Shown here: positions 13,007-63,999 of the stretch, one piece after another | How positions within the stretch are numbered: position 1 is the stretch's first letter | How the letters are laid out: every line of letters begins with the position of its first letter | The notes under the pieces: model-generated | What the model saw: the letters and a program-made list of their open reading frames with translations, nothing else | The model's database searches: none | Told to the model about the DNA's origin: nothing | Made by a program: the position numbers and the translations under genes | DNA from: a virus | Lineage: Duplodnaviria > Caudoviricetes | Direction: 5' to 3' (one strand) | IMG/VR virus record: IMGVR_UViG_3300030376_004895 | Location: 1 to 64,000 of that record | DNA length: 64,000 nt

Positions 13007-13248
13007 CTGTCTTGAAGATCACGATTCCACGAGGCGATGAGCAGCTCATGGAGTCGTTGTTCTTGTCCGAGGGTCGTATGCAACCTGCATTCCCTATGTC
13101 ATTTGAAGTGGATGATGGTTCGACATACAGAGTGTGGCATATCGGTGAAGAAGACCCCCAGGTCTTACAATTCATTCCCGAGGGACTTGATTGGGCATGG
13201 TGGTGTGCGGCTGAAGATGAGGAAAAGGAACCATTTGAGGACTTTTAG
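13003..13248 (+). CDS. Acidic hypothetical protein
   Basis: 81 aa, overlap-coupled. Confidence 0.65.
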   Translation: MTVLKITIPRGDEQLMESLFLSEGRMQPAFPMSFEVDDGSTYRVWHIGEEDPQVLQFIPEGLDWAWWCAAEDEEKEPFEDF

Positions 13249-13538
13249 TGATTGATATGGTGAAGATACGGGTAAAGCAGGTCATAGAGTGCTATGTGGA
13301 CATCGAGTCTCCGACAAAAGTAGGAGCTACCAGGATAATGGATAGTCTGAATTTGGAACCGATCTCAATGACAGAACCTGAGACAGTTGTTCGGAGATAT
13401 AAGAAGAAATCAAAATTTTACGCAGTTGAATGTGTTGAGTGTGGAAAATTCACGAATAGTTGCTGGAAGAGACATGACGTATGTTGGTCTTGTCGGAATA
13501 ATCCGAATCCTGTTGATGAAGTGACCATAGATGAGTAA
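13248..13538 (+). CDS. Hypothetical protein with C-terminal zinc finger
   Basis: CVECG...CWSC. Confidence 0.65.
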   Translation: MIDMVKIRVKQVIECYVDIESPTKVGATRIMDSLNLEPISMTEPETVVRRYKKKSKFYAVECVECGKFTNSCWKRHDVCWSCRNNPNPVDEVTIDE

Positions 13539-13546
13539 TCTAGGGT

Positions 13547-13559
13547 AATGTGTTCATAA
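13547..13559 (+). promoter_or_regulatory. Promoter motif variant AATGTGTTCATAA
   Basis: Intergenic; TTCATA ends 25 nt before ATG 13583. Confidence 0.55.
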
Positions 13560-13576
13560 CGATAACGCACTACGGT

Positions 13577-13891
13577 ATGAGCATGGCAGACCACCGCAGA
13601 GAGGCATATGCCCGCGAGAGGAGATACAGGATGCTCAGTAAGCCCTGGTTAGAAACGATAGCCGAGATTAGATCAGAAAGAGGTGGGTTGCTTGGTTCAG
13701 AGCAATTTACTGCGTTGGCCGGTGTTGAGAAAGCTGAGAGGCTGGACATTGTTGATTCGAGATTGAAGACCGCAGAAGGATGGATTGCATACTACGAGAA
13801 GGAGAAGAAGCGAGGAGCGAGGTTCCGTGTGAGGAGATACCTTCGTGAAATAGCAACCATGTCTGACAATGACCTGGAGTGGGAAACGTGA
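13577..13891 (+). CDS. Charged helical hypothetical protein
   Basis: Start likely ATG 13577 or 13583 rather than GTG 13550. Confidence 0.65.
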   Translation: MSMADHRREAYARERRYRMLSKPWLETIAEIRSERGGLLGSEQFTALAGVEKAERLDIVDSRLKTAEGWIAYYEKEKKRGARFRVRRYLREIATMSDNDLEWET

Positions 13892-14028
13892 GTGAAGAAG
13901 AAGTCGAATGGTGTGAACCATGTGGTGCGAGGATGAAAGAAGGAGATGAGAGATATGACATTATCACTAAGGAGAAGAGGCCGATCAGGCGATGCCCCCA
14001 ATGCAGGAAATGGGAGTGGGTAGAATGA
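13888..14028 (+). CDS. 46-aa zinc-ribbon microprotein
   Basis: CEPC...CPQC; overlap-coupled; not in ORF track. Confidence 0.6.
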   Translation: MSEEEVEWCEPCGARMKEGDERYDIITKEKRPIRRCPQCRKWEWVE

Positions 14029-14516
14029 CCTTCCAGGATGAAGTCGAATGGTGCTTGCGCTTATGGAATAGCCTCCGAATAGGAGGAGTCTGGACTCTCG
14101 AAGGAGTAGGGACGTATGTGCGAACCGATCTCAAGGAGATGACTCTGACGGAGATTCACATTGATAGAGCCACACCAGGGGATGAGAGAAGCCTCTTCGA
14201 TCATCACGATTACCTTGCCACACTAGCTAGGGAAATTGGATGGGAGATGGAGATGAAGGTCGAAAGAGCATTCACCTTTGATGGCGAATTTACCGTTCCA
14301 GAGGATAGGATTGGAGATGTAGCAGTATGCAACAAGAAGTGCGGTGCGATAGCAAGAGTGGAGCCAATCGCCGTTGAGCAGACATACTACAAGCTGACGG
14401 ATGGCGAATGTCCGGTATGCGGCAAGAAGGGATTCACGAAGGATTGGCACGATCTCCATGTCGTCATTGATGACAGAGGCGCGACTCTGAAAGCGCAGAA
14501 AGAAGAGGAGGAGTGA
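14025..14516 (+). CDS. Hypothetical protein with C-terminal zinc ribbon
   Basis: CNKKC...CPVC; ATG 14025 by overlap. Confidence 0.7.
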   Translation: MTFQDEVEWCLRLWNSLRIGGVWTLEGVGTYVRTDLKEMTLTEIHIDRATPGDERSLFDHHDYLATLAREIGWEMEMKVERAFTFDGEFTVPEDRIGDVAVCNKKCGAIARVEPIAVEQTYYKLTDGECPVCGKKGFTKDWHDLHVVIDDRGATLKAQKEEEE

Positions 14517-14695: not shown

Positions 14696-14997
14696 AGATG
14701 GAGATAAAAATTGAGGAATTGATAATTGACGGAAAAAAGTGGACGATTGAGTATAGCGAGGATTACAAAGATGGATGGAAACTCATCAATCATTTCAGAC
14801 CAAGCATCAGGGGGTTGAGTATGGCTAGTAAGAAGAATAGCCCAATCGACTCTCACAGGCAGGAATACAAAGCCTGGAAAGCCAAGAAGAAGAGAGATTC
14901 ACAGACTCGAAAGGCTCTCGTTCATGCGCTATTGCAATCAGTCGAGATAATCAATTCAGAAGACCTGATCCTAAAGAGTGATGATTCTGAGGAATGA
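14692..14997 (+). CDS. Hypothetical protein
   Basis: 101 aa, GAGGAGG SD. Confidence 0.65.
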   Translation: MKMEIKIEELIIDGKKWTIEYSEDYKDGWKLINHFRPSIRGLSMASKKNSPIDSHRQEYKAWKAKKKRDSQTRKALVHALLQSVEIINSEDLILKSDDSEE

Positions 14998-15095
14998 GTA
15001 TGCTCTGTTCGTTTTGCAGGGATAAAGCGACAGGGTGTGTAGATGGGCATAATGTATGTGATAGAGAAGAGTGTTTTAACAAGGCAACGAAGTAG
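14994..15095 (+). CDS. 33-aa Cys microprotein
   Basis: CSFC...VCDREEC; ATGA overlap. Confidence 0.5.
   Translation: MSMLCSFCRDKATGCVDGHNVCDREECFNKATK
15068..15079 (+). promoter_or_regulatory. Promoter motif variant AGAGTGTTTTAA
   Basis: Same GAGTGTT core with a canonical TTTTAA; ends 28 nt before ATG 15107. Confidence 0.55.
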
Positions 15096-15106
15096 AGAGT
15101 GGTATT

Positions 15107-15406
15107 ATGGCGCAACACAATTACAACAATACGGTGCATGAAGAGATTGAAACGACTTGTCACATGGGTGAGCAGCTCCATGTAGTCACGTCAAACGCAT
15201 TCAAATCCCGAGTCTTGAATCTCAGGATGTTCAGAGTAGTCCCATCGAAGACGGGGCATACGGGATATACGCGCATCGGATTCTTCTTGACTAGGAATGA
15301 AGCGAGGACTCTCCGTGATTCTCTCTCTGAGATCATAGAGGATGAGAATGCCTGGGACACCGAGATACCAGAGCCATTGATTGAGATGGAGGATGATGTT
15401 GAATGA
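15107..15406 (+). CDS. PC4/YdbC-like ssDNA-binding transcriptional coactivator fold
   Basis: LHVVTS..RVLNLRMF..GYTRIGFFLTRNEARTLRDSL pattern. Confidence 0.65.
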   Translation: MAQHNYNNTVHEEIETTCHMGEQLHVVTSNAFKSRVLNLRMFRVVPSKTGHTGYTRIGFFLTRNEARTLRDSLSEIIEDENAWDTEIPEPLIEMEDDVE

Positions 15407-15792
15407 AGTTTGAAACTCTTGATGAATTTCTGGAATATCATCACAAGTTGATACTTGATATTTGTGAGAAATCAGTTGAGGATCATGTAGTCATTGCCAA
15501 TTTGGCATTCGATCTGTGGAACCAGGCTAGGCTTTTTGCCAATCGCTCTTATGTCACATTGGCATTCGATTGCTGCTATATCATATCAAATGCGACAGGG
15601 AACAAGGTTTCCATCTCACTCTTGAAGAATATCTCGGGGGATCTACTAGATGGACGAAGAGTCAGAGCCATGACTACATCATCTCGCAAGCGATGGTTCA
15701 TGACCTACAAGGGCAAAGATGCAATTATGGAGATACTCCAAGACCAAGAGCTGTATGATGACGTGACGAGCAATTGGACTGAGGAAGAGTGA
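15403..15792 (+). CDS. Single TFB/TFIIB-type cyclin-repeat protein
   Basis: IANLAFDLWNQAR..NRSYVTLAFDCCYIIS..GNKVSISLLKNI resembles GRSxxxxAAAxxYxA; no Zn ribbon. Confidence 0.55.
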   Translation: MKFETLDEFLEYHHKLILDICEKSVEDHVVIANLAFDLWNQARLFANRSYVTLAFDCCYIISNATGNKVSISLLKNISGDLLDGRRVRAMTTSSRKRWFMTYKGKDAIMEILQDQELYDDVTSNWTEEE

Positions 15793-17231
15793 TGCTTTCA
15801 TATCGCTCTCTTGCAGAATCCTGGCGAGTCATGTCTGCATACAAGTTGAGGAATAGGGCAGAGATAGTGGCGAACAATCTCCGAGCCTCTATGACAGATC
15901 CCTGGACAGTCATAGCATACTTCTATCCTCGAAGCCTCAATGGCAACAGACTAAGTGATGAGGATTTCAGAGAGATATATTACTTGCTTACTAATGCATA
16001 TCCAAGTGAGATTGAACCGAACCCTGACCCTATTGCTCATCTTGTCCAACTATCGGAAACAGAAACGACAACAGGTAATGCAAAGAGCGTAGTCGATAGA
16101 ATCTCCAAGATACTAGCTAGTGATGACAATGAGGTTCGAGCATGGCTCATCAGACCCCTGTTTGATAGAATCAACAAACGTGATCTTCATCCATTGTTCA
16201 TGCGCCTGAGCGTTCGTTCCGCCCCTATCAGGAGGAGAGAAGTGATTGGTGCTCTTGCATTGGCATATGATCAGCCATTCCACCATATCAGAACATCGGC
16301 TAATCTCCTGGGTTTAGGCAATACTGTGAATGATTTGTCATTGCATTCATTCGATTATACCGCAGTAAGACCCCTTGTTGGTTCACCACTTGTCATCCCA
16401 ACACCTACGCTCGTTGAGTCCGTCAGCACGGTTGCGTTCACCAAATGCCTTCTGGAAACTGTAGAGGGAGCATGGGTCACTATCCACAGGGGGAACGAAA
16501 CTATTGGTTTCACGGCATCGGGGTATGAGTTGCCTGATGATGATGACTGGATAGAGAAGTGGGCAGATGCCATTGGACTTGAACCAGGTATCTATCTCTG
16601 TGACTATGCAGAAATGCGCGACAATCCTCTTTTGTTGATTGATTGGTTAGACCCTTCTGACCCACAGATGACATTCGCAAAACGCAGAGAGAGATTTGAA
16701 GGGATTCCTGAATGGGCTACGAAACCAATGGTCTCTCTGGATCGGCCATATCATAGCGAGAAATATCAGGAGACAGGCCATCCATTCCTATTGCGTAATG
16801 CCCGAGGGATTCTAACATACGAGAATACGATTGAAGAAGTCGCGCTATTGAATCCCGTATCGAAGCATCGCATAATGAGGGTTCTATCTGGTCGGGTCTT
16901 CCAGAATCTAGCTCAAGGGCCGAACCTGTATGTTTTGTGGAAACTAGGCGTTCGAGATGGTTTTGATTACTTCCCCATAACTGAGATGACGAGTGGTGAT
17001 TTGACTGATCAGGATTTCAAGAGATATTGTGCCGAGTGGAAATGGCTACCAGGAGAAGCAATCAGAATCGAAACCCCCTTGTTCGTCAAAGTGAACATCC
17101 TTACATCAGGATGGGGGGAGATTGGAGCATACTTGAATGGCAACATCGCAGGTATTGATAGCTCTGCAGGATTAGCAGATACAATGGGAGTGGAGGAAAT
17201 AGGATATGTCGGGGATTCTCAACCAGGATGA
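15789..17231 (+). CDS. ATP-dependent DNA ligase homologue with degenerate active site
   Basis: DBD, adenylation and OB domains colinear with archaeal ligase; motif I reads ETVEGAW instead of ExKYDGxR. Confidence 0.7.
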   Translation: MMLSYRSLAESWRVMSAYKLRNRAEIVANNLRASMTDPWTVIAYFYPRSLNGNRLSDEDFREIYYLLTNAYPSEIEPNPDPIAHLVQLSETETTTGNAKSVVDRISKILASDDNEVRAWLIRPLFDRINKRDLHPLFMRLSVRSAPIRRREVIGALALAYDQPFHHIRTSANLLGLGNTVNDLSLHSFDYTAVRPLVGSPLVIPTPTLVESVSTVAFTKCLLETVEGAWVTIHRGNETIGFTASGYELPDDDDWIEKWADAIGLEPGIYLCDYAEMRDNPLLLIDWLDPSDPQMTFAKRRERFEGIPEWATKPMVSLDRPYHSEKYQETGHPFLLRNARGILTYENTIEEVALLNPVSKHRIMRVLSGRVFQNLAQGPNLYVLWKLGVRDGFDYFPITEMTSGDLTDQDFKRYCAEWKWLPGEAIRIETPLFVKVNILTSGWGEIGAYLNGNIAGIDSSAGLADTMGVEEIGYVGDSQPG

Positions 17232-17640
17232 TCGTGATGTTGTCATCCTCGCTTCACTCATCCGAGGCGGCATCAAATGCGTCAGAACAACGGAGAGGAA
17301 ATGCGGCTATCAAATAAGGCCCGAGCTGTGGTTCACAATAATCAAGCCTGGGATTCAAAGAGCACTTGAATCACATGGTCTAACCGTCCGCCTGACATAC
17401 TCCGACACCGAGGAGATAACCAGGATCCTCAACATAATCAACGGCCTGGATGACCTGTCATCCACAAGCCAGGGACTCCAAGCGGTTAGGGATCTCAACG
17501 GCATCATTGAACAACCACGCACACATGAGGATGTAGTCAAAGTCCTTGAGATGCTGAACAAATATGAGAGTGTTCATAACCCTCACCACGCACGGAGAGA
17601 ACCCAACAAAGGAGATGATGATGAATGGCAGATGGATTGA
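17206..17640 (+). CDS. Degenerate single LAGLIDADG-like protein
   Basis: ILASLIRGGIKC..GYQIRPELWF in an I-CreI-like pattern; GAGGA SD. Confidence 0.45.
   Translation: MSGILNQDDRDVVILASLIRGGIKCVRTTERKCGYQIRPELWFTIIKPGIQRALESHGLTVRLTYSDTEEITRILNIINGLDDLSSTSQGLQAVRDLNGIIEQPRTHEDVVKVLEMLNKYESVHNPHHARREPNKGDDDEWQMD
17566..17578 (+). promoter_or_regulatory. Recurrent promoter-like motif GAGAGTGTTCATA
   Basis: Inside the 3' end of 17206..17640, upstream of the SSB gene (ATG 17625). Confidence 0.65.
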
Positions 17641-18961: not shown

Positions 18962-20221
18962 GTGTCAGATGATTCAGGATTTGGATGGTTCACCAAGAAG
19001 GACACCACAACCGGAGAGTCAGATGGGGCAGCTCCCAAGCCAACCCCTGCTCCGGTCAAGAAGAACGTGTGGAACGAGAAGATCGAAGAACCGGATTTTG
19101 ATACAGAGGGAATGTCACTCGAAGAGATAGACAACCGAATGTTCGGTGAAGAAGAGAAGGCAGAAGAAGCCGAACCTGCTTCATCACTCCCCTGGGCAAA
19201 GACTACTGTTGAGGAACCTGTGAATCATACAGTCCCTAAGACTCCCCTCAAGCAAATCGTTGAAGCAACGAGAAGCAACAACCCACTATGGGCAGAATTG
19301 GATGCAGAGAGAGAAGGTCATGACTTCCTAGATAACTTGGATAATTATGTTCTGTGTGGACTCGCTGGCCCACCAGGCTCGGGGAAGAGTGGATTAATCC
19401 TTGACTCTCTGTCTGATGAGGAATTGGCAGAAGGGGCAGAGGTTTGGCACATTGACTACGACAGGGGCGGAAAGACTTCCAAACACGCACATCATAGAGG
19501 AAAGAAGAACATAATCATCTTCGACCCGATTGTGATGAATACCGATGTTGAGATTCAAGATCAGATTGACTACTTAGCCACATATGAGAGGACAATGAAA
19601 CTCCTCAAGATGGCTAATGAGCAAGTGGATGCCCAACTAGCCCATTACAAGAAGCATGGGAAGATGCCAAAGCCATATCTCAAGACACTACTATTCGATG
19701 GTGCAGACAAATTCAAGGATGTTTGTGAGAACGTCATGAAGATCTATGACTTGGGACTTGGGAATGATGCCGTTGGCGTAGCCACTAAGAGAGTATCAAG
19801 ATTCAGTTGGGGCGTTCGCAAGACTCGCTATCGAGCTGCTACCTTAGTGTGGCAATCATTGATGGCAAAGGGAGTCCATGTGTATGCGGTTTCTCACATG
19901 AAGTCCACTTATGACGGCGATGGGAATGTCATTGAGGGCAAAGATGTTCCTGGGTGGTTGAAGAACAGCGATGGTGATCTGCAACAGATAGTAATCCTCT
20001 ATATCGACCAAGAGAGGGATGACATGGGGAGGCTCACCGGAGCCGAGAAGTCCTTTGCCGTTCTGACTAAGAATAGAACATCCCTTGAGATGCCTGGACG
20101 ACACACCATCTTTGAGAGAGCACCCGAGGAAAGGGGCGGTTCCACATGGTATGGATGGCCTAGCCTAAAGGATGGGTTATTCGAGACAGACCAGTCACAG
20201 AAGGGTGCGAGCGATGAGTGA
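18962..20221 (+). CDS. P-loop ATPase (Sak4/RecA-like recombinase candidate)
   Basis: GPPGSGKS, HIDYD, LLFDG, VSHMK; disordered acidic N-terminus. Confidence 0.75.
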   Translation: MSDDSGFGWFTKKDTTTGESDGAAPKPTPAPVKKNVWNEKIEEPDFDTEGMSLEEIDNRMFGEEEKAEEAEPASSLPWAKTTVEEPVNHTVPKTPLKQIVEATRSNNPLWAELDAEREGHDFLDNLDNYVLCGLAGPPGSGKSGLILDSLSDEELAEGAEVWHIDYDRGGKTSKHAHHRGKKNIIIFDPIVMNTDVEIQDQIDYLATYERTMKLLKMANEQVDAQLAHYKKHGKMPKPYLKTLLFDGADKFKDVCENVMKIYDLGLGNDAVGVATKRVSRFSWGVRKTRYRAATLVWQSLMAKGVHVYAVSHMKSTYDGDGNVIEGKDVPGWLKNSDGDLQQIVILYIDQERDDMGRLTGAEKSFAVLTKNRTSLEMPGRHTIFERAPEERGGSTWYGWPSLKDGLFETDQSQKGASDE

Positions 20222-21252
20222 TTGTCGTGCCCTTAGAAGTGAGATTCCCTCGTAATGCCTACCCCATCCCCGTAGAGGGTTATGAGGACTTCGTGTCCTC
20301 CTATGGGTGGCATCCAGGACAACCGGAGAAGCACCTCCCTAAGTTCACTAAGTCATCCGTAGGTGCGTATGACTTCTGTGCTCAACAGGGCTTCATCAAG
20401 TATGTCCTCGGTGTGAAGGAACCCGAGAATGACAACATGATTCGAGGAACCAATGTCCACGATGCCATTGAGCAATTCTATCATGACGTGGATTTAGACT
20501 CCGTAAGAGGACTTGTCGAAATTTATTTTGATGCCGAGTCATTGTATGACTACTTCTTGGAATTGATTCCTAATCTGGATCAGTATGAGTTAGGAGAAGA
20601 AGAACACATCAAAAAATATCTATGGATTGAGGCAGAGCGAGCATTGGAATGCAACTTGGATTACTTTCTGCCTGTTGGCAACGAGCTGACTCTTCATGGA
20701 GTGGTTGAGTATGAAGACCAATTGATTCACATCACGGGGATGATTGATCGACTATTCATCAATGAGAATGGAGAGTATCATATCCATGAGCTGAAGACGG
20801 GGGTTTTCAAAGAGCATAAGAAGAAGAAGTGGGAACACATGAGGAGGGAATTGGCATACTATGTATTCCTCATGAAGAATTGCGACAATAGATTGTATGA
20901 TCGACAGGGGAATGTAGTTGGCAAGGCAAACTTCAACGATGCAGAGATTGCATATTGGGGTTGGGATCACACAGGAGGGGATGGAGTGTTCAGAGGCAAA
21001 GAGCCAATCAGAGTCAAAGAGATGGGACTAATGTATAATTCCATCAGCGATCTCCTCCTATATCATAGGAATTATAGAGGAGACATGGACGGTCTCCAAT
21101 TCCCCATGCTCCCTCGTGACTCACTCAATTACATCTGTGAACCCTGGTGCGCCCTCAAGGGATTCTGTCCTCGATATGAGAAGTCATTGATGCCTCCTGC
21201 GTCCAGAGTGTTCAAAAGGACAAGCCCCTCTGAGGAGGTTGAGAGTGGATGA
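20218..21252 (+). CDS. Cas4/RecB-like PD-(D/E)xK exonuclease with Fe-S cysteines
   Basis: DFC..RGTNVH, GMIDRL, ELKTG, CEPWCALKGFC. Confidence 0.85.
   Translation: MIVVPLEVRFPRNAYPIPVEGYEDFVSSYGWHPGQPEKHLPKFTKSSVGAYDFCAQQGFIKYVLGVKEPENDNMIRGTNVHDAIEQFYHDVDLDSVRGLVEIYFDAESLYDYFLELIPNLDQYELGEEEHIKKYLWIEAERALECNLDYFLPVGNELTLHGVVEYEDQLIHITGMIDRLFINENGEYHIHELKTGVFKEHKKKKWEHMRRELAYYVFLMKNCDNRLYDRQGNVVGKANFNDAEIAYWGWDHTGGDGVFRGKEPIRVKEMGLMYNSISDLLLYHRNYRGDMDGLQFPMLPRDSLNYICEPWCALKGFCPRYEKSLMPPASRVFKRTSPSEEVESG
21205..21217 (+). promoter_or_regulatory. Promoter motif variant AGAGTGTTCAAAA
   Basis: About 32 nt before methyltransferase ATG 21249. Confidence 0.45.
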
Positions 21253-28472: not shown

Positions 28473-28720
28473 CGCTTAGTTTCCTTACGGCTTCCACCTG
28501 CACCTAGTTGCCTTCTCATCTTAGGTCGCACGTTGCCTCGTGTCTTGTTCCTAGCGTATCTCTTGCGAGTCCTGCCACGCTTGACCTTGCGGCTCTGGTT
28601 CCATGCCCTAGCCTTGCCAGCCCTCTCTGCCCTGCCGCTAATGGTATTCTTCGAGTAGCCCTGGAACTTCCCCTTCTCCTCTGACTTCATTGAGTCCCAC
28701 GCTTCATCGAACGCACTCAT
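28469..28720 (-). CDS. Arg/Lys-rich small protein
   Basis: Start MSAFDEAW (ATG 28720, ATGA overlap); very basic C-terminus. Confidence 0.7.
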   Translation of the reverse strand: MSAFDEAWDSMKSEEKGKFQGYSKNTISGRAERAGKARAWNQSRKVKRGRTRKRYARNKTRGNVRPKMRRQLGAGGSRKETKR

Positions 28721-28893
28721 GATGCCACCTTCAACCTGGGCTTGAGCTTCTTCCAGACCTCTTCGCATAGCGGGCATTCCCATAGGAATATCCTATCCCT
28801 TGATCCGGCATAGAATCCATTGATGCGATATGCAAGGACACGATTACCACAACCAGGACAGTCTTGGCTAATCTTATCCTGATATTTCTTCAT
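28717..28893 (-). CDS. 58-aa TFS/RpoM-like zinc ribbon
   Basis: CPGC-x24-CPLC-xxVW; overlap-coupled on both sides; not in ORF track. Confidence 0.65.
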   Translation of the reverse strand: MKKYQDKISQDCPGCGNRVLAYRINGFYAGSRDRIFLWECPLCEEVWKKLKPRLKVAS

Positions 28894-61300: not shown

Positions 61301-63999
61301 CCAGCTATGTTCGCTACTGCAACACTCTGCAGGAAGCCGAATGAGTTTGCTTCGATGTAATTCTTGATTCCCGCCGCAGTAAGGAATGATGTGTCGTTGT
61401 TGCCGAATGAGGATACCTCTGAGCTAGTCTGAACCGCCGCACCTGCAAATTGGGCTACTCCTAAACTGCCGACATTCAAGGTGTTGCCCGACTTAGACAA
61501 CCCTGTCCCTGCGGTTATTTGTCCCGTTCCTGTGAATTGGGTGAATGTCAATGAGGTTGAGTCAAGAGTAATGTCATCATTGGTCGTGAGAATCCAACCT
61601 TGATCTCCATTGACAGTCCCTTCTTCAACCCATACATAGAGTCCCGCCGTGACCTCCACATCAGCATCCGCATCAGAGGCCCGCGACCAGCCACTTGCCG
61701 AAGCGACATAGATGCCATTCTCTGATCCATCACTTTGATCTTTAACGAGAACTCTGTCATTTGCTTGCACGGATACCCCGTCAATGGTCTGTGTTCCACT
61801 ACGAGTTATGTTGGCCGTTGTAGCGACTCTCACAGAGTCTTTCGTGTCTAGCCCCTGCTTGAGTCCATCAACGTATGATTTGGTTGCTATCGTGCCTGTA
61901 TCGACATTGAATGTCAGCGTTTCATTCCCTGCCTGGTCGGTAGTGAAGTTGCCACCGCCGGATAGACCTGTTCCCGCCGTAAGGGTGATTGTAGCATCAT
62001 TGGCGGAAGGCACACCGGCTATTGTGAGTTGTTGGGGAGAGGTTCCTGTATTGGGTGTGAGCGTTATGTTGGCCCCTGCTACGAACTTGACATCCTGGGT
62101 TCCACTACTCGCACCACTCTTTGTTAAACGCAAGAGGGCATCGTTTGAGCTATCGACAAAGGATGTGGCAAAGACGTTCTGAGTGTTGGTGTCAGTCGAG
62201 GCTATGGTTAGTTGAGTGCCGCTATTCCTAGTGACTGTGACATTGGAACCACCTGTGATGGTGATGTCATCATTGCTACCTGTGCTTGGATCAAGTCTGA
62301 GGACAGGATCATTGTTGTCACCGAGCGTCTGTGCAACAAGGAGGTCATAGGTAGTTGCTGTTGTTGATGAAATGGTTATGGTATCGCCCGTTTCTGCAAT
62401 CTGGACGTTGGAACCTCCGGCAATGGTGATGTAATCCGTTCCGCTTCCCGAGCCTCCCGCAACCAGGTTGATTCGAGCATCGCTTCCAGATGTGGAGGAA
62501 TTGGTCGAGTATGTGGTATCGCTTGATACTATGGTGATGACATCGCTCTCTTGACTGACGGTGGTGTTCGTCCCACCTGCTAGCTTCACGGTGTCAGTCC
62601 CACTCCCTGAGCCACCTGCGGTCAGGACTAGGTTTGCCCCTCCTGTGACAGTCGCAGAACTGATTGCATAGGTATGGTTGTCGTTTTCATCCGTTCCCCA
62701 TGCTATTACGCCCCCTGCACCTGTCTTGAGGACTTGACCGGAAGAACCGCGATCCGTAGGGAATGTGAATGCATTGCCTCCTGAGTTGAATGCCACTTTG
62801 CCCGTCCCATGCGGGTCAAAGGTTATGTCGTCATTGTTATTTGATGTCTTGAATGTAAGAGGCGATGCCGTGACTATTTCCCCTCCATTCCCTGTCGTAT
62901 GAATCCTTATGTCAAAGTCATCTGACTCAGGTGATTTGAGGTCTATACGCGCACCAACGTCACCACCCATCTCCAATGTGGTATATCCCGCATCAAGGGT
63001 ATTCGTCCCACCCGTCTTGACAATGAAACTCTCACCCGCGCCCTTGTCTATGGAGAACACCGCCCCACCCGAATTACCATCAGGACTGAATGTTAGGTAT
63101 TCTTCCCCTTGAAATGTGTCTGAATTGATTGAAGTAAGGATACGATCATTAGAACCATTAGACATGAAGTCGCTGACATCCACGCTGAACTCGCCCGAGC
63201 CGCTAATGTCTATTCCTGTCCCTGCTGTTGGAACAGAACCAGCATTCAGACCTATGTTGGTTCGTGCCTGTGCCTTCTGAGTGGTTGTGAAAGATTGAGA
63301 TGCATCTGCTCTGATCCTGTTGCCAAGAGCCGTGTTGATGGTAGAGAAATATGAAGCATCATCATTGATTGCGGCGGCTAATTCATTCAGAGTATCTAAT
63401 GCACCAGGAGCTGAATCAATCAAAGAAGTGACTTCGTTATCGACATAAGCCTTGATTGATTGTTGTGATGCGGCATGAGTGGCTGAGTTGGATGCCATGT
63501 TGTCTTCGTCTTTGAGGTCTATTGTGATGGTGGCCGAGTAATCTCCGCTTGCCGTGTTGGTTTCGCTTTGGATGAGCATCCCCGTTCCTGCGGTCAGATC
63601 AACACCAGATGTGATGTCGGCCAAGACCGCATAGCCATAGGACAGTATCTTGTCCTGGATAGCCGCAGAGGTCATGAGCGATGTGTCATTGTCTGCAAAG
63701 GACTCAGAACTCACTTGAAGGCTATTGGCGGCTAATTCGGATACGGTTAGTCCACCTACATTGAGAGTGACCGCACCTGCGGCTTGATTTGCAGTAATCC
63801 CCGTATTCGCAGTTATGCTATACACTACGCCTGTGGTGCTTGTCCCAATGGCAACACCGTTGATAGAACCCCCTGTGATGGATACATCATCCGAATCCTG
63901 AGTGGCTATTGTCCCTAACCCCAGGGATGTTCGAGCCGTTGCACCGCTTTCTGCCACCCAATTAACGCCATTTCCTACTATGAATACGCTATCAGAGGG
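52381..63999 (-). CDS. Giant modular tail fibre with C-terminal peptidase S74 intramolecular chaperone, 5'-truncated (>3858 aa)
   Basis: About 15 (V/L)GI(G/K/Y)..P modules; SDMRVKENI..LRPVKF..FIAQE..LVKAVQEL; frame open to window end. Confidence 0.85.
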   Translation of the reverse strand, partial: PSDSVFIVGNGVNWVAESGATARTSLGLGTIATQDSDDVSITGGSINGVAIGTSTTGVVYSITANTGITANQAAGAVTLNVGGLTVSELAANSLQVSSESFADNDTSLMTSAAIQDKILSYGYAVLADITSGVDLTAGTGMLIQSETNTASGDYSATITIDLKDEDNMASNSATHAASQQSIKAYVDNEVTSLIDSAPGALDTLNELAAAINDDASYFSTINTALGNRIRADASQSFTTTQKAQARTNIGLNAGSVPTAGTGIDISGSGEFSVDVSDFMSNGSNDRILTSINSDTFQGEEYLTFSPDGNSGGAVFSIDKGAGESFIVKTGGTNTLDAGYTTLEMGGDVGARIDLKSPESDDFDIRIHTTGNGGEIVTASPLTFKTSNNNDDITFDPHGTGKVAFNSGGNAFTFPTDRGSSGQVLKTGAGGVIAWGTDENDNHTYAISSATVTGGANLVLTAGGSGSGTDTVKLAGGTNTTVSQESDVITIVSSDTTYSTNSSTSGSDARINLVAGGSGSGTDYITIAGGSNVQIAETGDTITISSTTATTYDLLVAQTLGDNNDPVLRLDPSTGSNDDITITGGSNVTVTRNSGTQLTIASTDTNTQNVFATSFVDSSNDALLRLTKSGASSGTQDVKFVAGANITLTPNTGTSPQQLTIAGVPSANDATITLTAGTGLSGGGNFTTDQAGNETLTFNVDTGTIATKSYVDGLKQGLDTKDSVRVATTANITRSGTQTIDGVSVQANDRVLVKDQSDGSENGIYVASASGWSRASDADADVEVTAGLYVWVEEGTVNGDQGWILTTNDDITLDSTSLTFTQFTGTGQITAGTGLSKSGNTLNVGSLGVAQFAGAAVQTSSEVSSFGNNDTSFLTAAGIKNYIEANSFGFLQSVAVANIAGSAIQTGSESFADNDTTIMTSAAVQDKILSYGYTTNTGDITGVDLTVTSPITIASETNTGSGSYSATLGLADPATLTQLTESTDATDDKIILWDESASSWKYMTIDDLQDSIDTGGAGGIAFDGSTANGVLTYKDADEASVESTLTYDPSGLLAIYPSSGYGRIEMGGSSGAYIDLKNNSSDDFDVRLITDGTGLDIVANGAGNHITLKTNGTQRVKVEDAQTFLNTTNAKVGYTGQAGKMFLSADATGSYLYWNATGTDITLAADDDLTLHADDDMFFQTGGATKLTLNDKGELYGSDNRQFTPNSYTLGVADGNNANKWIKVCEWIMDGSNYDSFSFHAKITQRGNASHWTELLIRGEFATTWWTKAFTIHGPYASTAQDTFLMVFDHSSGGSDPKATLYFRNDQAWNKKYLQVIQNVRHGDNIPATSWTWYNTTTGSTTTPATDGEGNSSTLSPAYFRTMAMGLGGGSDTQYRIYDGITATPMYLHTANQRVGIGTASPDDTLHLKGTDGGTSLLVEDTGSSSNPAVEIKTDSHHWKLQARGADSDKLRIVEGNNVHMVVKTDGKVGIGNTAPTTKLHISDNAEVSLSVDSSHITGSQISLDATATGGDEWRLISAADNAGTVDGTGAFGLYNIDASAYRLVVEGTTGNVGIGTTTPATKLHIERSESDAENLMLRLRDSTVNALGERIGIEGFWNTVPAGDIEFELTNVSSGAAAIVFSPHSGSSTKNEAMRIASDGYVGIGTSSPANYSNGGRGLHINDATLPELRLTNDTTGTASGHGSLLQVAGEHFYIWNAEAADIKFATSAAVKMTLNSAGKLGIGETAPLFPLHLKYTDNRTDPEGSGSSSGAGAIGANAQGGGLYIENESTTDGSWAGVTFRTDTADARIAYKSVGSSLVNEGQMSFYLDTNDSNDDVFTLQEVLRLRGGNSNGSQSYNSVDLPVNDARLRLGASQQLELKFDGSHTRITHNAATDSWMIFKNEDGAGIQFNIGTEKGIEINKNGNVELYYDNTKSFETTSAGGTLTGALTVTGAASAVGSLTMNYAGSDTYAEIIGPLNRDLRFILRDNGDGDGFLFRNAAGTNLLDINRTGNVTVSGDLQVSGNDIKSSGGTTALTLSGANVTVAGDLTVSGTTTTINTTNLAVEDNIVVLNSNVTGTPADVDAGIEVERGDTANATLLFDEGDNCWKSYTPDSGVTFQARNSNGYISFGPQNGTYAHISTDVSKFYLNKQIVVDSGIVSSYNEDLKLQRAMSSQEQITIADDSMTFKSANTDVMKIDGANARVGIGTTSPETTLHVDNGSIQVGLQADDYYTLMTNNAFAFHRASASYIDQRIDNGDIRFRMNAANTDLMMLDGSTMRVGIGTTSPGFTLDVTGTFQAQGDHDGNVIIDNTGTDQVILASHTGSGTPVPWDIREASSTTNNGANYGPLNITRMNMDADGAGSNIHFRTKKNNGSAQEVGGIGATIDTGLTANATVTGSLHFYTTDAGTGRQEKMTIKSDGNVGIGVTSPQHKLDIDGNLFLGKSGESTALTGGPNLTLQGDSALATFKSDNASSGDQVAGIRVFADGYRAAGMVIGDYDNSDGSVTEDWIFGRQYASNHKAGIMATPENGGDEYVTVQSHSQKQVIIAADSDDIDFLVRGTGGTYLFGEASTSRVGIGTTSPAAQLHVGSTAYEVENGIFLTGSHQRAAKMVIHADDANTDWDEQEIGLALHNEDPTNNNWSPHIAFTTHEDDDGNPANANPVAVAAISATYNTRNANSWASGALVFFTNDNDGNVERMRIAEDGQVLVQNNGIIRANGSGYLQLGNTSGGDIRVFGDGSSSRIQAHGNSLYLQTNRDTDDIIFATNAGGTDGDSTVVEAMRIHGPDGNVGIGNSSPSSPLDVTGSIELSSNLHFNGAGGHYIKHEGGTASTDNFTFRFSDNEDVMIVRGDGRVGIKTTSPSHPLHVVGDTYVQSGDIHISQGAYKIKNASNGNQAISFPSSGNLLIEGVNTEFQGNVTSTGVFVDKNSRVVGASSQVLDVQWTVGTGSDTNGYFDFVQNGNTNENSRVWGDTPSPYYPQRGILWQMTNMDAGGGDGGWTTDAFPVDHTRTYRFSVFARQESPQSGSGSMTLYFGTHGYGNTNGVVHIDNDQVSTNPYFWAGDLPETGKWYLLVGHVLGSGDTAPDTNIYGGIYDVDTGKKEANITDSFRWHTDTTTSKHRSFLFYYDDTGNTDPDGYLFGPRVDLCDGTEPPISSLINGGYFYSTKTSTMVTIANDNASADADATLRLLSQHGSDTWTDLTEDTYGNFEITGGASTRRSIMKMTDHDTTTGTLEFNREHFDWDTKIYGDSATPAIMVDGSTDRVGIYTASPVSTLQIAGDTTIYNATNEAHLVLRRDATGANYGSAIKFQFGDSGSASSGHEYARMTGNIEDSTNTAEDGYMTFSTSLAGTLAEKMRITSAGKVGIGTDTPPDTMTIEHATAPILGIYRNTNVASLSAGDVLSKIAFRKHTGNSGNTTVELYNVHGNSGTSDGVTDDYHTSDFRIATRKIGTANLTDRFTILGQEGYVGIGTTSPEVLLHVKGDTYIQSATANQLLRIHADTNSSPAPRIEMMRGTHDTWGTGDNYNDWRIENVNHLKFYSGTSSVSSGAAVERFEILSDGSGITNNNAYVIPGTAGSAGQVLKWPSSGTVLEWAADGGDIDTNLNLANNPTWTVTTTSGIGLEITRNQSASNMDNDLVRIRDDSQYSDQAVLRLIHDGFDQMQAADHSKVTGALVAQSTDDTIQWPVTVANAKNANSDGYGVGIKLKLSGWGNEDETDKWAGIGARGDDSSNWGRPTGMMFWTRSSTTSGTTPTEKMYLDGGGQLGIGVTAPSHIIHVNGQGRATNSAWATSSDMRVKENIVELDSSLDVINSLRPVKFDYIDGAKDQINFIAQEFKEVIPDAVTLTEEQGLDDFHVLDTSMLVPMLVKAVQELTAKVEELEARLDG
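53635..59598 (-). repeat. Eight identical 12-mers GTCGGAATAGGC (VGIG) at fibre module junctions
   Basis: + strand GCCTATTCCGAC at 53635, 53947, 55672, 56317, 57205, 57433, 59335, 59587; 29-nt exact pair 57192-57220/57420-57448. Confidence 0.85.
61214..63659 (-). repeat. Duplicated fibre module FADNDT..MTSAA.QDKILSYGY
   Basis: 19-nt exact repeat at 61214-32 and 63641-59 within a longer similar segment. Confidence 0.75.

Follow-up and report, generated by a model that had tools for sequence, protein, structure and literature searches.

No archaeal virus is known to encode an RNA polymerase; the host enzyme is steered instead, and genes derived from TFB recur in these viruses. TFB homologues are annotated in the Sulfolobales viruses YNP1 and YNP2, in Halorubrum tailed viruses, and in the Aoguangviridae exemplar ON649702. 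They have also been reported for the rudivirus SSRV1, the Asgard virus JinchiV1 and Aoguangviridae YSH_150918 (PMC13700489; bioRxiv 10.1101/2020.01.16.907410; PMC10768690). In yeast, Sub1 interacts physically and genetically with TFIIB and holds melted promoter DNA (PMC5389574).

Here, we analyzed a window of 64,000 nucleotides (positions 1 to 64,000 of the IMG/VR record IMGVR_UViG_3300030376_004895) from a tailed virus of marine archaea. Its hosts are Poseidoniales, an order whose abundance in surface seawater is among the highest of all archaea. A preliminary description of this DNA had proposed that a PC4-like protein, a truncated TFB and a zinc ribbon encoded further downstream constitute an undescribed kit for transcription takeover. 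The word "undescribed" is too strong, since TFB homologues had already been annotated in other archaeal viruses.

A conserved gene pair within a collinear block

ORF99 (15107–15406, + strand) and ORF129 (15403–15792, + strand) are real, conserved genes, present as first described. They overlap by ATGA, and ORF129 in turn overlaps by GTGA the 480-aa ORF480 (15789–17231, + strand), which according to synteny is always beside the pair. Synteny also identifies ORF144 (17206–17640, + strand) as the final gene of a putative operon. The block that includes the pair is shared, in collinear order, by 17 relatives (16 other contigs), and the segment from o113 through the MTase gene is collinear in every locus examined. 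The PC4-like and cyclin-repeat genes remain adjacent, or about 440 nt apart in L137, down to 27–41% identity.

Because the whole block is fully collinear, the adjacency of the two genes is no specific sign of joint work. This observation, together with a gene fusion that joins only zr49 (a zinc-ribbon gene described below) and ORF129, fits an arrangement in which two unrelated functions share one operon, ORF99 being an SSB that serves DNA metabolism and ORF129 with zr49 a transcription regulator or decoy, and in which adjacency reflects collinear genome architecture. We consider this arrangement unlikely in view of the ATGA overlap, of the range of divergence over which the genes stay together, and of the Sub1–TFIIB partnership, which is a precedent of joint action (PMC5389574).

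A promoter-like box variant, AATGTGTTCATA, is located upstream of o113 (13547–13558, + strand). This box is the probable start of an ancestral operon comprising, in order, o113, zr49, o174, further genes, the PC4-like gene, the cyclin-repeat gene, ORF480 and o144. In L175 and L177, the box of the lineage was observed at the o113-equivalent position, and none was present directly 5′ of the PC4-like gene. The earlier proposal that the operon begins with the PC4-like ORF is valid only for this sub-clade; in distant relatives the pair is found mid-operon, behind the o174 homologue. The next promoter-like box, an exact copy of AGAGTGTTCATA (17567–17578, + strand), falls within the 3′ end of ORF144 and marks the downstream boundary; it precedes the operon formed by o444, a Sak4-like ATPase and a PD-(D/E)XK nuclease.

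Both genes are covered by RNA-library contigs, which come from three studies. They report presence only; starts, strand and level are not readable from them, DNA carry-over may contribute, and uncovered parts carry no meaning. One of these contigs (14988–15337) crosses the proposed promoter of ORF99 uninterrupted, which counts against a promoter role.

Profile-level homology of ORF129 to TFB

The AF2 model of ORF129 (pLDDT 81.8, pTM 0.77) has a cyclin-box fold in which one repeat fills the 129 residues, with helix 1 starting at residue 6; a second repeat, an N-terminal TFIIB ribbon, a B-reader and a B-linker are all absent. A basic insertion is present at residues ~84–105, and the protein ends in an acidic tail. 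In the structure search, the best 32 of 48,161 PDB representatives were all cyclin-fold proteins (Z 7.8–10.3), and the first unrelated row had a Z of 5.6. TFIIB, TFB and Brf1 were matched with Z 9.0–9.8 over 94–113 aligned residues (rmsd 2.8–3.9 Å), tied with cyclin C (Z 10.3) and Rb pocket B (Z 9.9). Since these scores are tied, the fold alone cannot tell TFB from cyclins or Rb.

The sequence profiles favor TFIIB/TFB. With the broad family profile A3, the top five PDB matches were human TFIIB (E 8.7e-4), with both repeats in one register, and cyclin or Rb proteins were absent among its PDB matches at E ≤ 10. Likewise, no cyclin Pfam family appeared among the matches of ORF129 family members. 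The link to TFIIB emerged only with this broader family, given that the narrow profile A1 yielded chance-level PDB matches only. The hhalign comparison of the ORF129 family with archaeal TFB repeats gave a score of 32.5 (P 1e-4), against 11.5 ± 2.2 for shuffled columns (n = 60, maximum 19.1) and 14.7 for the reversed control. The TFB repeats used came from 21 archaeal genomes and were obtained by way of a Methanosarcinales MAG, the only match (37% identity) of the viral thermosome used as a query.

In absolute terms the sequence link to TFB is weak, and single-repeat matches are not significant alone. PF00382 was the most recurrent weak Pfam match, found in 3 of 27 family members at E 0.005, which is below the curated cut-off; ORF129 itself had no Pfam match at all, and PF00382 was absent from the record and from five relatives. 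The likeness to TFB spans helices 1–4, with the C-x-Y helix and the conserved Arg loop inside the matched region. As to the repeat of origin, hhalign favors the C-terminal one (P 5e-4 vs. 8e-3), and HMMER, with human TFIIB, the N-terminal one (12.1 vs. 8.4 bits).

These data allowed us to weigh whether ORF129 could instead bind proteins as a scaffold of the cyclin or Rb kind, without relation to TFB, or whether its likeness to TFB is convergent. The structural scores would accommodate this (cyclin C, cyclin K and the Rb pocket, Z 10.3–9.6; TFIIB, 9.8–9.0), but of these families the profiles match TFIIB/TFB only, and in the correct register, and identity to TFIIB (13–16%) is higher than to most cyclin/Rb rows (7–10%; cyclin C, 15%). 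In addition, we know of no cyclin-dependent kinases in archaeal hosts of the Poseidoniales type, and we regard either alternative as highly improbable.

The ORF129 family comprises 30 library representatives at E ≤ 0.001, of 75–191 aa save one spurious long match, and is confined to marine metagenomes. A tblastn search of a phage collection with ORF129 and ORF99 returned no match, and a PHROGs search with the single proteins returned nothing. The ESM Atlas was uninformative for ORF129 (scores under 0.9, unnamed clusters). The BFVD fold search gave weak rows only, those of best probability being giant-virus TFIIBs and the TFB of SSRV1. Taken together, the AF2 fold and the family profiles matching TFIIB/TFB repeats agree with the initial assignment of ORF129 as one cyclin box of the TFB type, and demonstrate, at the level of profiles, its homology as a stand-alone TFB/TFIIB-type cyclin repeat.

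The zinc ribbon as a separate gene

The preliminary description had noted that the 129-aa ORF has no zinc ribbon or B-reader. This is true, but it overlooked that a ribbon exists as a separate gene, zr49 (13879–14028, + strand), which encodes a 49-aa C4 zinc ribbon (WCEPCG...CPQCRKWEW) homologous to the C-terminal extension of the 186–191-aa homologues of ORF129. The zr49 gene is standalone in L001, L002 and L130–L136. L003, L005 and L006 have no separate zr49, and their cyclin-repeat protein, of ~190 aa, carries the ribbon at its C-terminus, the opposite end to that of TFB's own ribbon. This pattern of fusion or fission ties the zr49 gene to that of the repeat. In Pfam, zr49 matched generic ribbon models only and not PF08271 (TFIIB ribbon).

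A 58-aa ribbon located at 28717–28893 had been considered TFS-like and part of the kit. It showed generic ribbon matches only, the best being the IS1595 ribbon (E 0.0019), TFIIS_C was not listed, and the acidic hairpin tip is absent by the account of the preliminary description itself. Because this generic ribbon lies in the structural block, a three-part transcription kit that includes it is without support.

ORF99 adopts a PC4 fold

The AF2 model of ORF99 (pLDDT 77.5) shows a β4-α arrangement, with strands at residues 9–15, 22–31, 34–43 and 58–61 and a helix at 63–78. The leading Foldseek matches were all of the PC4 family, the best being PC4 homologues with a probability of 0.98–1.00, which bears out the PC4-like character first ascribed to this ORF. 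When aligned with VIA-align, BPSL1147 (5a4n_A) superimposed with Z 7.7 and an rmsd of 2.3 Å over 67/68 residues, followed by PC4, YdbC, SP_0782, Sub1 and the T5 PC4-like protein. At the sequence level, ORF99 and 25 relatives showed no PC4-family Pfam match at E ≤ 5, and the family profile A2 retrieved no PC4 protein from the PDB at E ≤ 10.

Within the ORF99 family, the basic residues R35, R40, R43 and K48 are invariant and those on strand 3 are conserved, an indirect sign that the protein may, as a homodimer, bind single-stranded or melted DNA. A long, highly conserved loop, PSKTGHTGYT, joins strands 3 and 4, and the protein has an acidic tail. The family amounts to 99 clusters, many of them on contigs of 90–117 kb. 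We know of no PC4-fold family noted earlier in archaeal viruses, and that of ORF99 would be the first. A complex prediction with two copies of ORF99 and one of ORF129 scored 0.00; it was run without controls and has no bearing either way.

Recombination and repair genes around the pair

The surrounding recombination and repair genes encode a Sak4-like ATPase (o419, which matches the Sak4-like phrog_124 with E 1.3e-4), a PD-(D/E)XK nuclease, a UvrD helicase, an XPF/ERCC4 nuclease and, as a lead only, the ligase-like ORF480. The protein-language-model neighbors of ORF480 are ATP-dependent DNA ligase families (score 0.90); no Pfam match and no PDB profile match at E ≤ 1 accompanied this likeness. 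The ORF144 profile also had no PDB match at E ≤ 1. Models for OB-fold SSB, RPA and PolB found no match in the 85.9-kb record, the completeness of which is only 81%; Pfam can miss OB folds that have diverged. Because of these neighbors, and because no other SSB is detectable, the PC4-like protein may simply be the viral SSB.

Extended to the whole locus, this possibility describes a recombination or replication module with no transcription factor. ORF99 as SSB would serve the Sak4/RecA-like ATPase, the PD-(D/E)XK exonuclease, the XPF nuclease and the ligase-like ORF480, and the cyclin repeat with its ribbon would be a protein/DNA adaptor like the TFIIB-like domains of Orc6. Besides the gene content and the lack of matches to other SSB models, two structural observations point in this direction: the matches of ORF99 include the T5 PC4 homologue (4bg7), which has been implicated in recombination-dependent replication, and those of ORF129 include Orc6 (Z 6.7 and Z 5.0). 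However, the Orc6 score is well under those of TFIIB and TFB, and archaeal TFB-type repeats are known solely from transcription initiation factors. The incompleteness of the record and the elusiveness of divergent OB folds also weaken the argument from missing SSBs, as does, for the ligase, the failure of Pfam and PDB profile searches to confirm it. We consider a recombination module a rather doubtful explanation of the locus.

Promoter-like boxes

As had been noted, a motif variant, AGAGTGTTTTAA, precedes the pair (15068–15079, + strand), with 27 nt between the box and the ATG of ORF99, a spacing compatible with a leaderless transcript. This box combines a GAG-rich half at the BRE position with a TATA-like half, and its geometry, a TATA-like hexamer plus a purine-rich segment at the BRE position, is that of an archaeal promoter. 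The variant was kept with its flanks and spacing in L001 and L002 (68% protein identity in the latter) and not in L005. The exact 12-mer AGAGTGTTCATA is present in four copies, all on the + strand, when 0.02 would be expected, and the degenerate form AGAGTGTTYWWA in six, including the copy at 15068, versus 0.05 expected. The bare heptamer GAGAGTG was dropped as a motif because it is not enriched (19 seen, 14.6 expected).

The window holds nine copies or variants of the box, five of which end 25–27 nt 5′ of a start codon. Boxes are strand-specific and multi-copy in all five close relatives, and across 11 lineages they hold their position with a lineage-specific sequence. When viral contigs were scanned for the 14-mer GAGAGTGTTCATAA, the matches listed were mostly on unrelated contigs and of no use for co-occurrence. 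Relatives without AGAGTGTTCATA also have the pair, and other GAG-rich/TATA-like boxes occur in them at the same places. Therefore, the gene and the exact motif are not strictly linked. These boxes could simply be the ordinary promoter type of the host.

A possible role in transcription initiation

We tentatively favor a reading in which ORF129 and zr49 act as a TFB-like factor that modulates initiation by the host RNA polymerase at promoters, with ORF99 as its ssDNA-binding partner or as an SSB. Against this reading stand the weakness of the sequence link, a ribbon unlike that of TFIIB in type and place, and the recombination and repair genes nearby. ORF129 and zr49 would constitute a minimal, permuted factor, with the cyclin repeat first and the ribbon last. 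Since this factor has neither the B-reader and linker nor the second repeat, it would not be a canonical replacement of TFB. Regarding the binding steps and the direction of the effect, we infer that it would most likely act on TBP-bound or TATA-proximal promoter DNA, where it would modulate initiation either by favoring the viral GAG-rich/TATA-like boxes or by competing with host TFB. ORF99, presumably co-expressed with ORF129 by translational coupling, would stabilize the melted promoter strand, much as Sub1/PC4 does alongside TFIIB within the pre-initiation complex of eukaryotes; alternatively, it may double as the SSB of the virus.

A more elaborate version, which seems to us quite improbable, is a self-contained viral initiation system with private promoters for each lineage. 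The repeat would read the lineage-specific sequence at the BRE position (GAGAGTG here; GAGTGAG, CATGAGG, GAGAGA/G and others in relatives), the ribbon would dock the RNA polymerase, and the PC4-like helper would provide in trans the strand-holding of the absent B-reader and linker. Factor and box would then co-evolve, and the system would amount to a TFB, permuted and split, that is assisted by a PC4-like protein.

Should the set act at promoters, one could learn from it which parts of TFB are sufficient to bind or block the pre-initiation complex, and it would echo the eukaryotic Sub1–TFIIB partnership. If it serves recombination instead, a TFB-type repeat would be at work outside transcription, comparable to Orc6.

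Comparison with known systems

ORF99 shares with the PC4/Sub1 family (human PC4, 1PCF; BPSL1147, 5A4N; YdbC, 2LTD; SP_0782; phage T5, 4BG7) the four-strand sheet and the helix over the whole domain, as well as a small size (~100 aa) and, on strand 3, R40 and R43, which are invariant. In contrast to that family, it shows no Pfam-level sequence match, and the PSKTGHTGYT loop and the acidic tail are its own. Like the viral pair, yeast Sub1 and TFIIB combine a PC4-fold protein with one of the TFIIB type. However, the yeast proteins interact, whereas the viral ones are linked only by gene adjacency in a collinear block; moreover, the genetic interaction of Sub1 maps to the B-reader of TFIIB, an element that ORF129 does not have.

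ORF129 has the cyclin-box fold in common with the core of archaeal TFB and eukaryotic TFIIB (PF00382; P. woesei TFBc, 1AIS/1D3U; human TFIIBc, 1VOL/1C9B/5WH1), with Z 9.0–9.8. TFB and TFIIB have two tandem repeats, preceded by an N-terminal ribbon, a B-reader and a B-linker. ORF129 has one repeat and none of these N-terminal elements, its ribbon being C-terminal or encoded by a separate gene and not of the PF08271 type. It is further set apart by the basic insertion of ~20 residues before its last helices. The other viral TFBs examined match ~160–195 residues of the two-repeat TFB core at the BLAST level, whereas ORF129, a single repeat with its ribbon at the opposite end, matches nothing in the phage collection at that level. 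Both are nevertheless TFB-derived genes carried by archaeal viruses, and among the forms compared here the ORF129 family is the most reduced, with one repeat and a ribbon fused or split at the end opposite to that of TFB.

Results

Conserved gene block around ORF99 and ORF129

The IMG/VR record is 85.9 kb long. The window, its first 64 kb, has a left arm on the plus strand (thermosome subunit, UvrD-type helicase, PD-(D/E)XK nuclease, C5 methyltransferase and ERCC4 nuclease) and a right arm on the minus strand with giant ORFs and tail-like genes. This layout agrees with the descriptions of published tailed viruses of Poseidoniales (PMC5434244, PMC11706807, PMC13108676). The pair reported in the preliminary description, a PC4-like gene followed by a truncated TFB gene, was borne out: ORF99 (15107-15406, +) and ORF129 (15403-15792, +) are genuine reading frames sharing an ATGA, and ORF129 overlaps the 480-aa ORF480 (15789-17231, +) by GTGA, with a 144-aa ORF next. 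RNA-library contigs from three studies cover both genes, and one crosses the proposed promoter of ORF99; these are evidence of presence only.

The PC4-like gene precedes the cyclin-repeat gene in 15/15 loci (14 IMG/VR contigs and the window), with approximately 440 nt between them in contig L137, and these loci continue with ORF480, the 144-aa ORF, o444, a Sak4-like ATPase and a nuclease. Two more distant lineages show the same order, with a PC4-like identity of 41-45% and a cyclin repeat matched by the HMM of the broad ORF129-family profile, A3 (E 5e-37 and 1e-29). Because the whole block is collinear, the adjacency of the two genes is not specific evidence of their cooperation. The nearest protein-language-model clusters of ORF480 are ATP-dependent DNA ligases (score 0.90); no ligase was identified by Pfam or by a profile of 10 sequences run against the PDB.

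In all relatives, the PC4-like gene is preceded by o174 (13992-14516), in which, as in its homologues, the N-terminal EVEW..LWNSL sequence is conserved and the C-terminus carries a ribbon-like motif (CxxxCG...CPxCG). Further upstream, RNA-library contigs from two studies (X17 and X20) join position 13244 to 13544 with CTGA between, leaving out a 96-aa ORF (13248-13538); most simply, this is a strain variant without that ORF.

ORF99 has a predicted PC4 fold and ORF129 resembles a TFB repeat

ORF99 matched no Pfam or PHROG model, and its family comprises 99 clusters, exclusively from marine metagenomes and many on contigs of 90-117 kb. An AF2 model based on 25 relatives (pLDDT 77.5) showed a sheet of four strands followed by a helix. 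The leading Foldseek matches were all PC4-family proteins or relatives of the Pur-alpha/Whirly type (probability 0.98-1.00 for the top eleven), and an independent alignment against 48,161 PDB representatives placed BPSL1147 first (Z 7.7, rmsd 2.3 A, 67/68 residues), followed by YdbC, Pur-alpha, human PC4 and the phage T5 PC4-like protein. Modest Z values such as these are normal for a domain of 70 residues; since the match extends over the entire domain and the matched family is consistent, the predicted PC4 fold is well supported, as an assignment by structure.

No single-sequence model matched ORF129. Among 1.84 billion representatives, a profile search retrieved only 30 relatives, none of them a full-length TFB, and all stand-alone (75-191 aa) except for one spurious long match. 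The AF2 model is all-helical (pLDDT 81.8, pTM 0.77), and its best 32 PDB representatives were all cyclin-fold proteins (Z 7.8-10.3), including cyclins C, K and T, the Rb pocket, TFIIB, Brf1 and P. woesei TFB; Orc6 reached Z 6.7 and the first unrelated protein Z 5.6. TFB and cyclins cannot be told apart by fold alone, but they can by sequence. The five best PDB matches of A3 were the human TFIIB core (E 8.7e-4 to 2.7e-3), with both repeats aligned in one register, and PF00382 was the weak Pfam match that recurred most often among family members. When compared by hhalign with the N- and C-terminal TFB repeats from 21 archaeal genomes, the family gave P 0.0078 and 5e-4, respectively, and 9.9e-5 for the pooled repeats (score 32.5), against 11.5 ± 2.2 (maximum 19.1) for 60 column-shuffled controls and 14.7 for the reversed alignment. 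We conclude that ORF129 is a diverged TFB-type cyclin repeat, in line with the resemblance noted in the preliminary description; it may descend from either the N- or the C-terminal TFB repeat. ORF129 lacks a ribbon, a B-reader and a second repeat, and carries a basic insertion of low pLDDT (approximately residues 84-105) where the last TFB helices begin.

Short frames with a single PF00382 repeat were also found in cellular genomes rich in TFB paralogues (G025:C5:73689-73919, G014:C1:103432-103656 and G017:C1:1313564-1313761; 188, 179 and 103 aa, respectively); therefore, solo TFB repeats occur in cells too.

A zinc ribbon accompanies the cyclin repeat

The absence of a Zn ribbon noted in the preliminary description is true of ORF129 itself, but a ribbon exists as a separate 49-aa ORF (13879-14028, +). 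This is the counterpart of a C4 ribbon (WCEPCG...CPGCKKWEW) that forms the C-terminal extension of five ORF129 homologues (186-191 aa). The short cyclin protein and a stand-alone ribbon gene occur together in L001, L002 and L130-L136, and the fused form, without a separate ribbon gene, in L003, L005 and L006. This fusion/fission pattern argues that the ribbon and the cyclin repeat would act together. The ribbon matched only generic ribbon models and not the TFIIB one, and it lies at the opposite end from TFB's own ribbon; for these reasons, the system is TFB-like in its parts but permuted.

A second, 58-aa ribbon (28717-28893, −; CxxC-x24-CxxC-xxW), previously considered TFS-like, matched generic ribbon families only, with no TFIIS_C match, and is located in the structural block.

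Promoter-like boxes

The exact 12-mer AGAGTGTTCATA is present in four copies (0.02 expected), on the plus strand only, between 4 and 24 kb, and the degenerate form AGAGTGTTYWWA in six (0.05 expected). One of these (15068-15079) is the motif variant already described upstream of ORF99, 27 nt from its start. The bare heptamer GAGAGTG was not enriched. In 5/9 copies and variants the box ends 25-27 nt upstream of a start codon, the distance that would be expected between an archaeal TATA box and the start codon of a leaderless transcript. A two-mismatch copy, AGCGTATTCATA (63979-63990, −), lies 21 nt upstream of GTG 63957, the start of a 3858-aa ORF heading the minus-strand structural block.

The link between gene and exact motif is not strict. 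Five close relatives carry 2-7 box copies apiece, all on the early-gene strand, but L175 and L177, the most distant lineages examined, keep the pair without AGAGTGTTCATA anywhere in their 12-kb loci. In both, no box directly precedes the pair, which sits within the operon, after o174; equivalent places contain the related boxes GAGTGAGYCTTTAAGMCCC (L175) and CATGAGGCTTTAWA..CCC (L177). L001 and L002 retain both the variant preceding ORF99 and its flanking sequence, and L005 lacks the variant; the internal box at 15068 is a trait of the window's sub-clade. Upstream of the o444 homologue, a GAG-rich stretch of lineage-specific sequence followed by a TATA-like hexamer was found in 11/11 lineages. 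Approximately 25-30 nt past the hexamer comes an (A)ATCCC(G/C)CAAGGAG-like element common to most lineages (window 17579-17625, and equivalent places in L130-L136, L175 and L177), a possible conserved 5' leader or ribosome-binding site.

Discussion

The proposal of a viral promoter-specificity module is partly supported, by both folds and the TFB-type sequence link, and not by the ribbon at 28717. To our knowledge, the TFB-type repeat is known in archaea solely from transcription initiation factors, which favors a role of the pair in transcription, as does the promoter geometry of the boxes; however, the latter may be plain host-type promoters. A precedent is provided by eukaryotic Sub1/PC4, which partners TFIIB in the pre-initiation complex (PMC5389574). 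Against this role, the neighbors are recombination and repair genes: o419 (region 18962-21252) weakly matches Sak4-like ssDNA-annealing/RecA-like ATPases (phrog_124, E 1.3e-4) and is followed by the PD-(D/E)XK nuclease gene, so that both look like a two-gene recombination module. In addition, PolB, OB-fold SSB and RPA/tRNA_anti-type (RPA-like) domains had no Pfam-level match in the 85.9-kb record, and DNA_ligase_A_M only chance-level ones; because the first three were undetected, ORF99 may instead be a viral SSB, like its T5 homologue. As described for Satyavativiridae (PMC13108676), the virus may combine reliance on host replication with recombination genes of its own.

The system had been called undescribed, but viral TFB homologues are annotated in the Sulfolobales viruses YNP1/YNP2 and Halorubrum tailed viruses, with further reports from rudiviruses, Asgard viruses and Aoguangviridae (PMC13700489; bioRxiv 10.1101/2020.01.16.907410; PMC10768690). 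The ORF99, ORF129 and ribbon proteins are not mentioned in the magrovirus literature examined. What is new is the lone repeat whose ribbon is C-terminal or split off, the restriction of the ORF129-type repeat to this family of marine viruses, the PC4-fold neighbor beside it, and the boxes with lineage-specific sequence.
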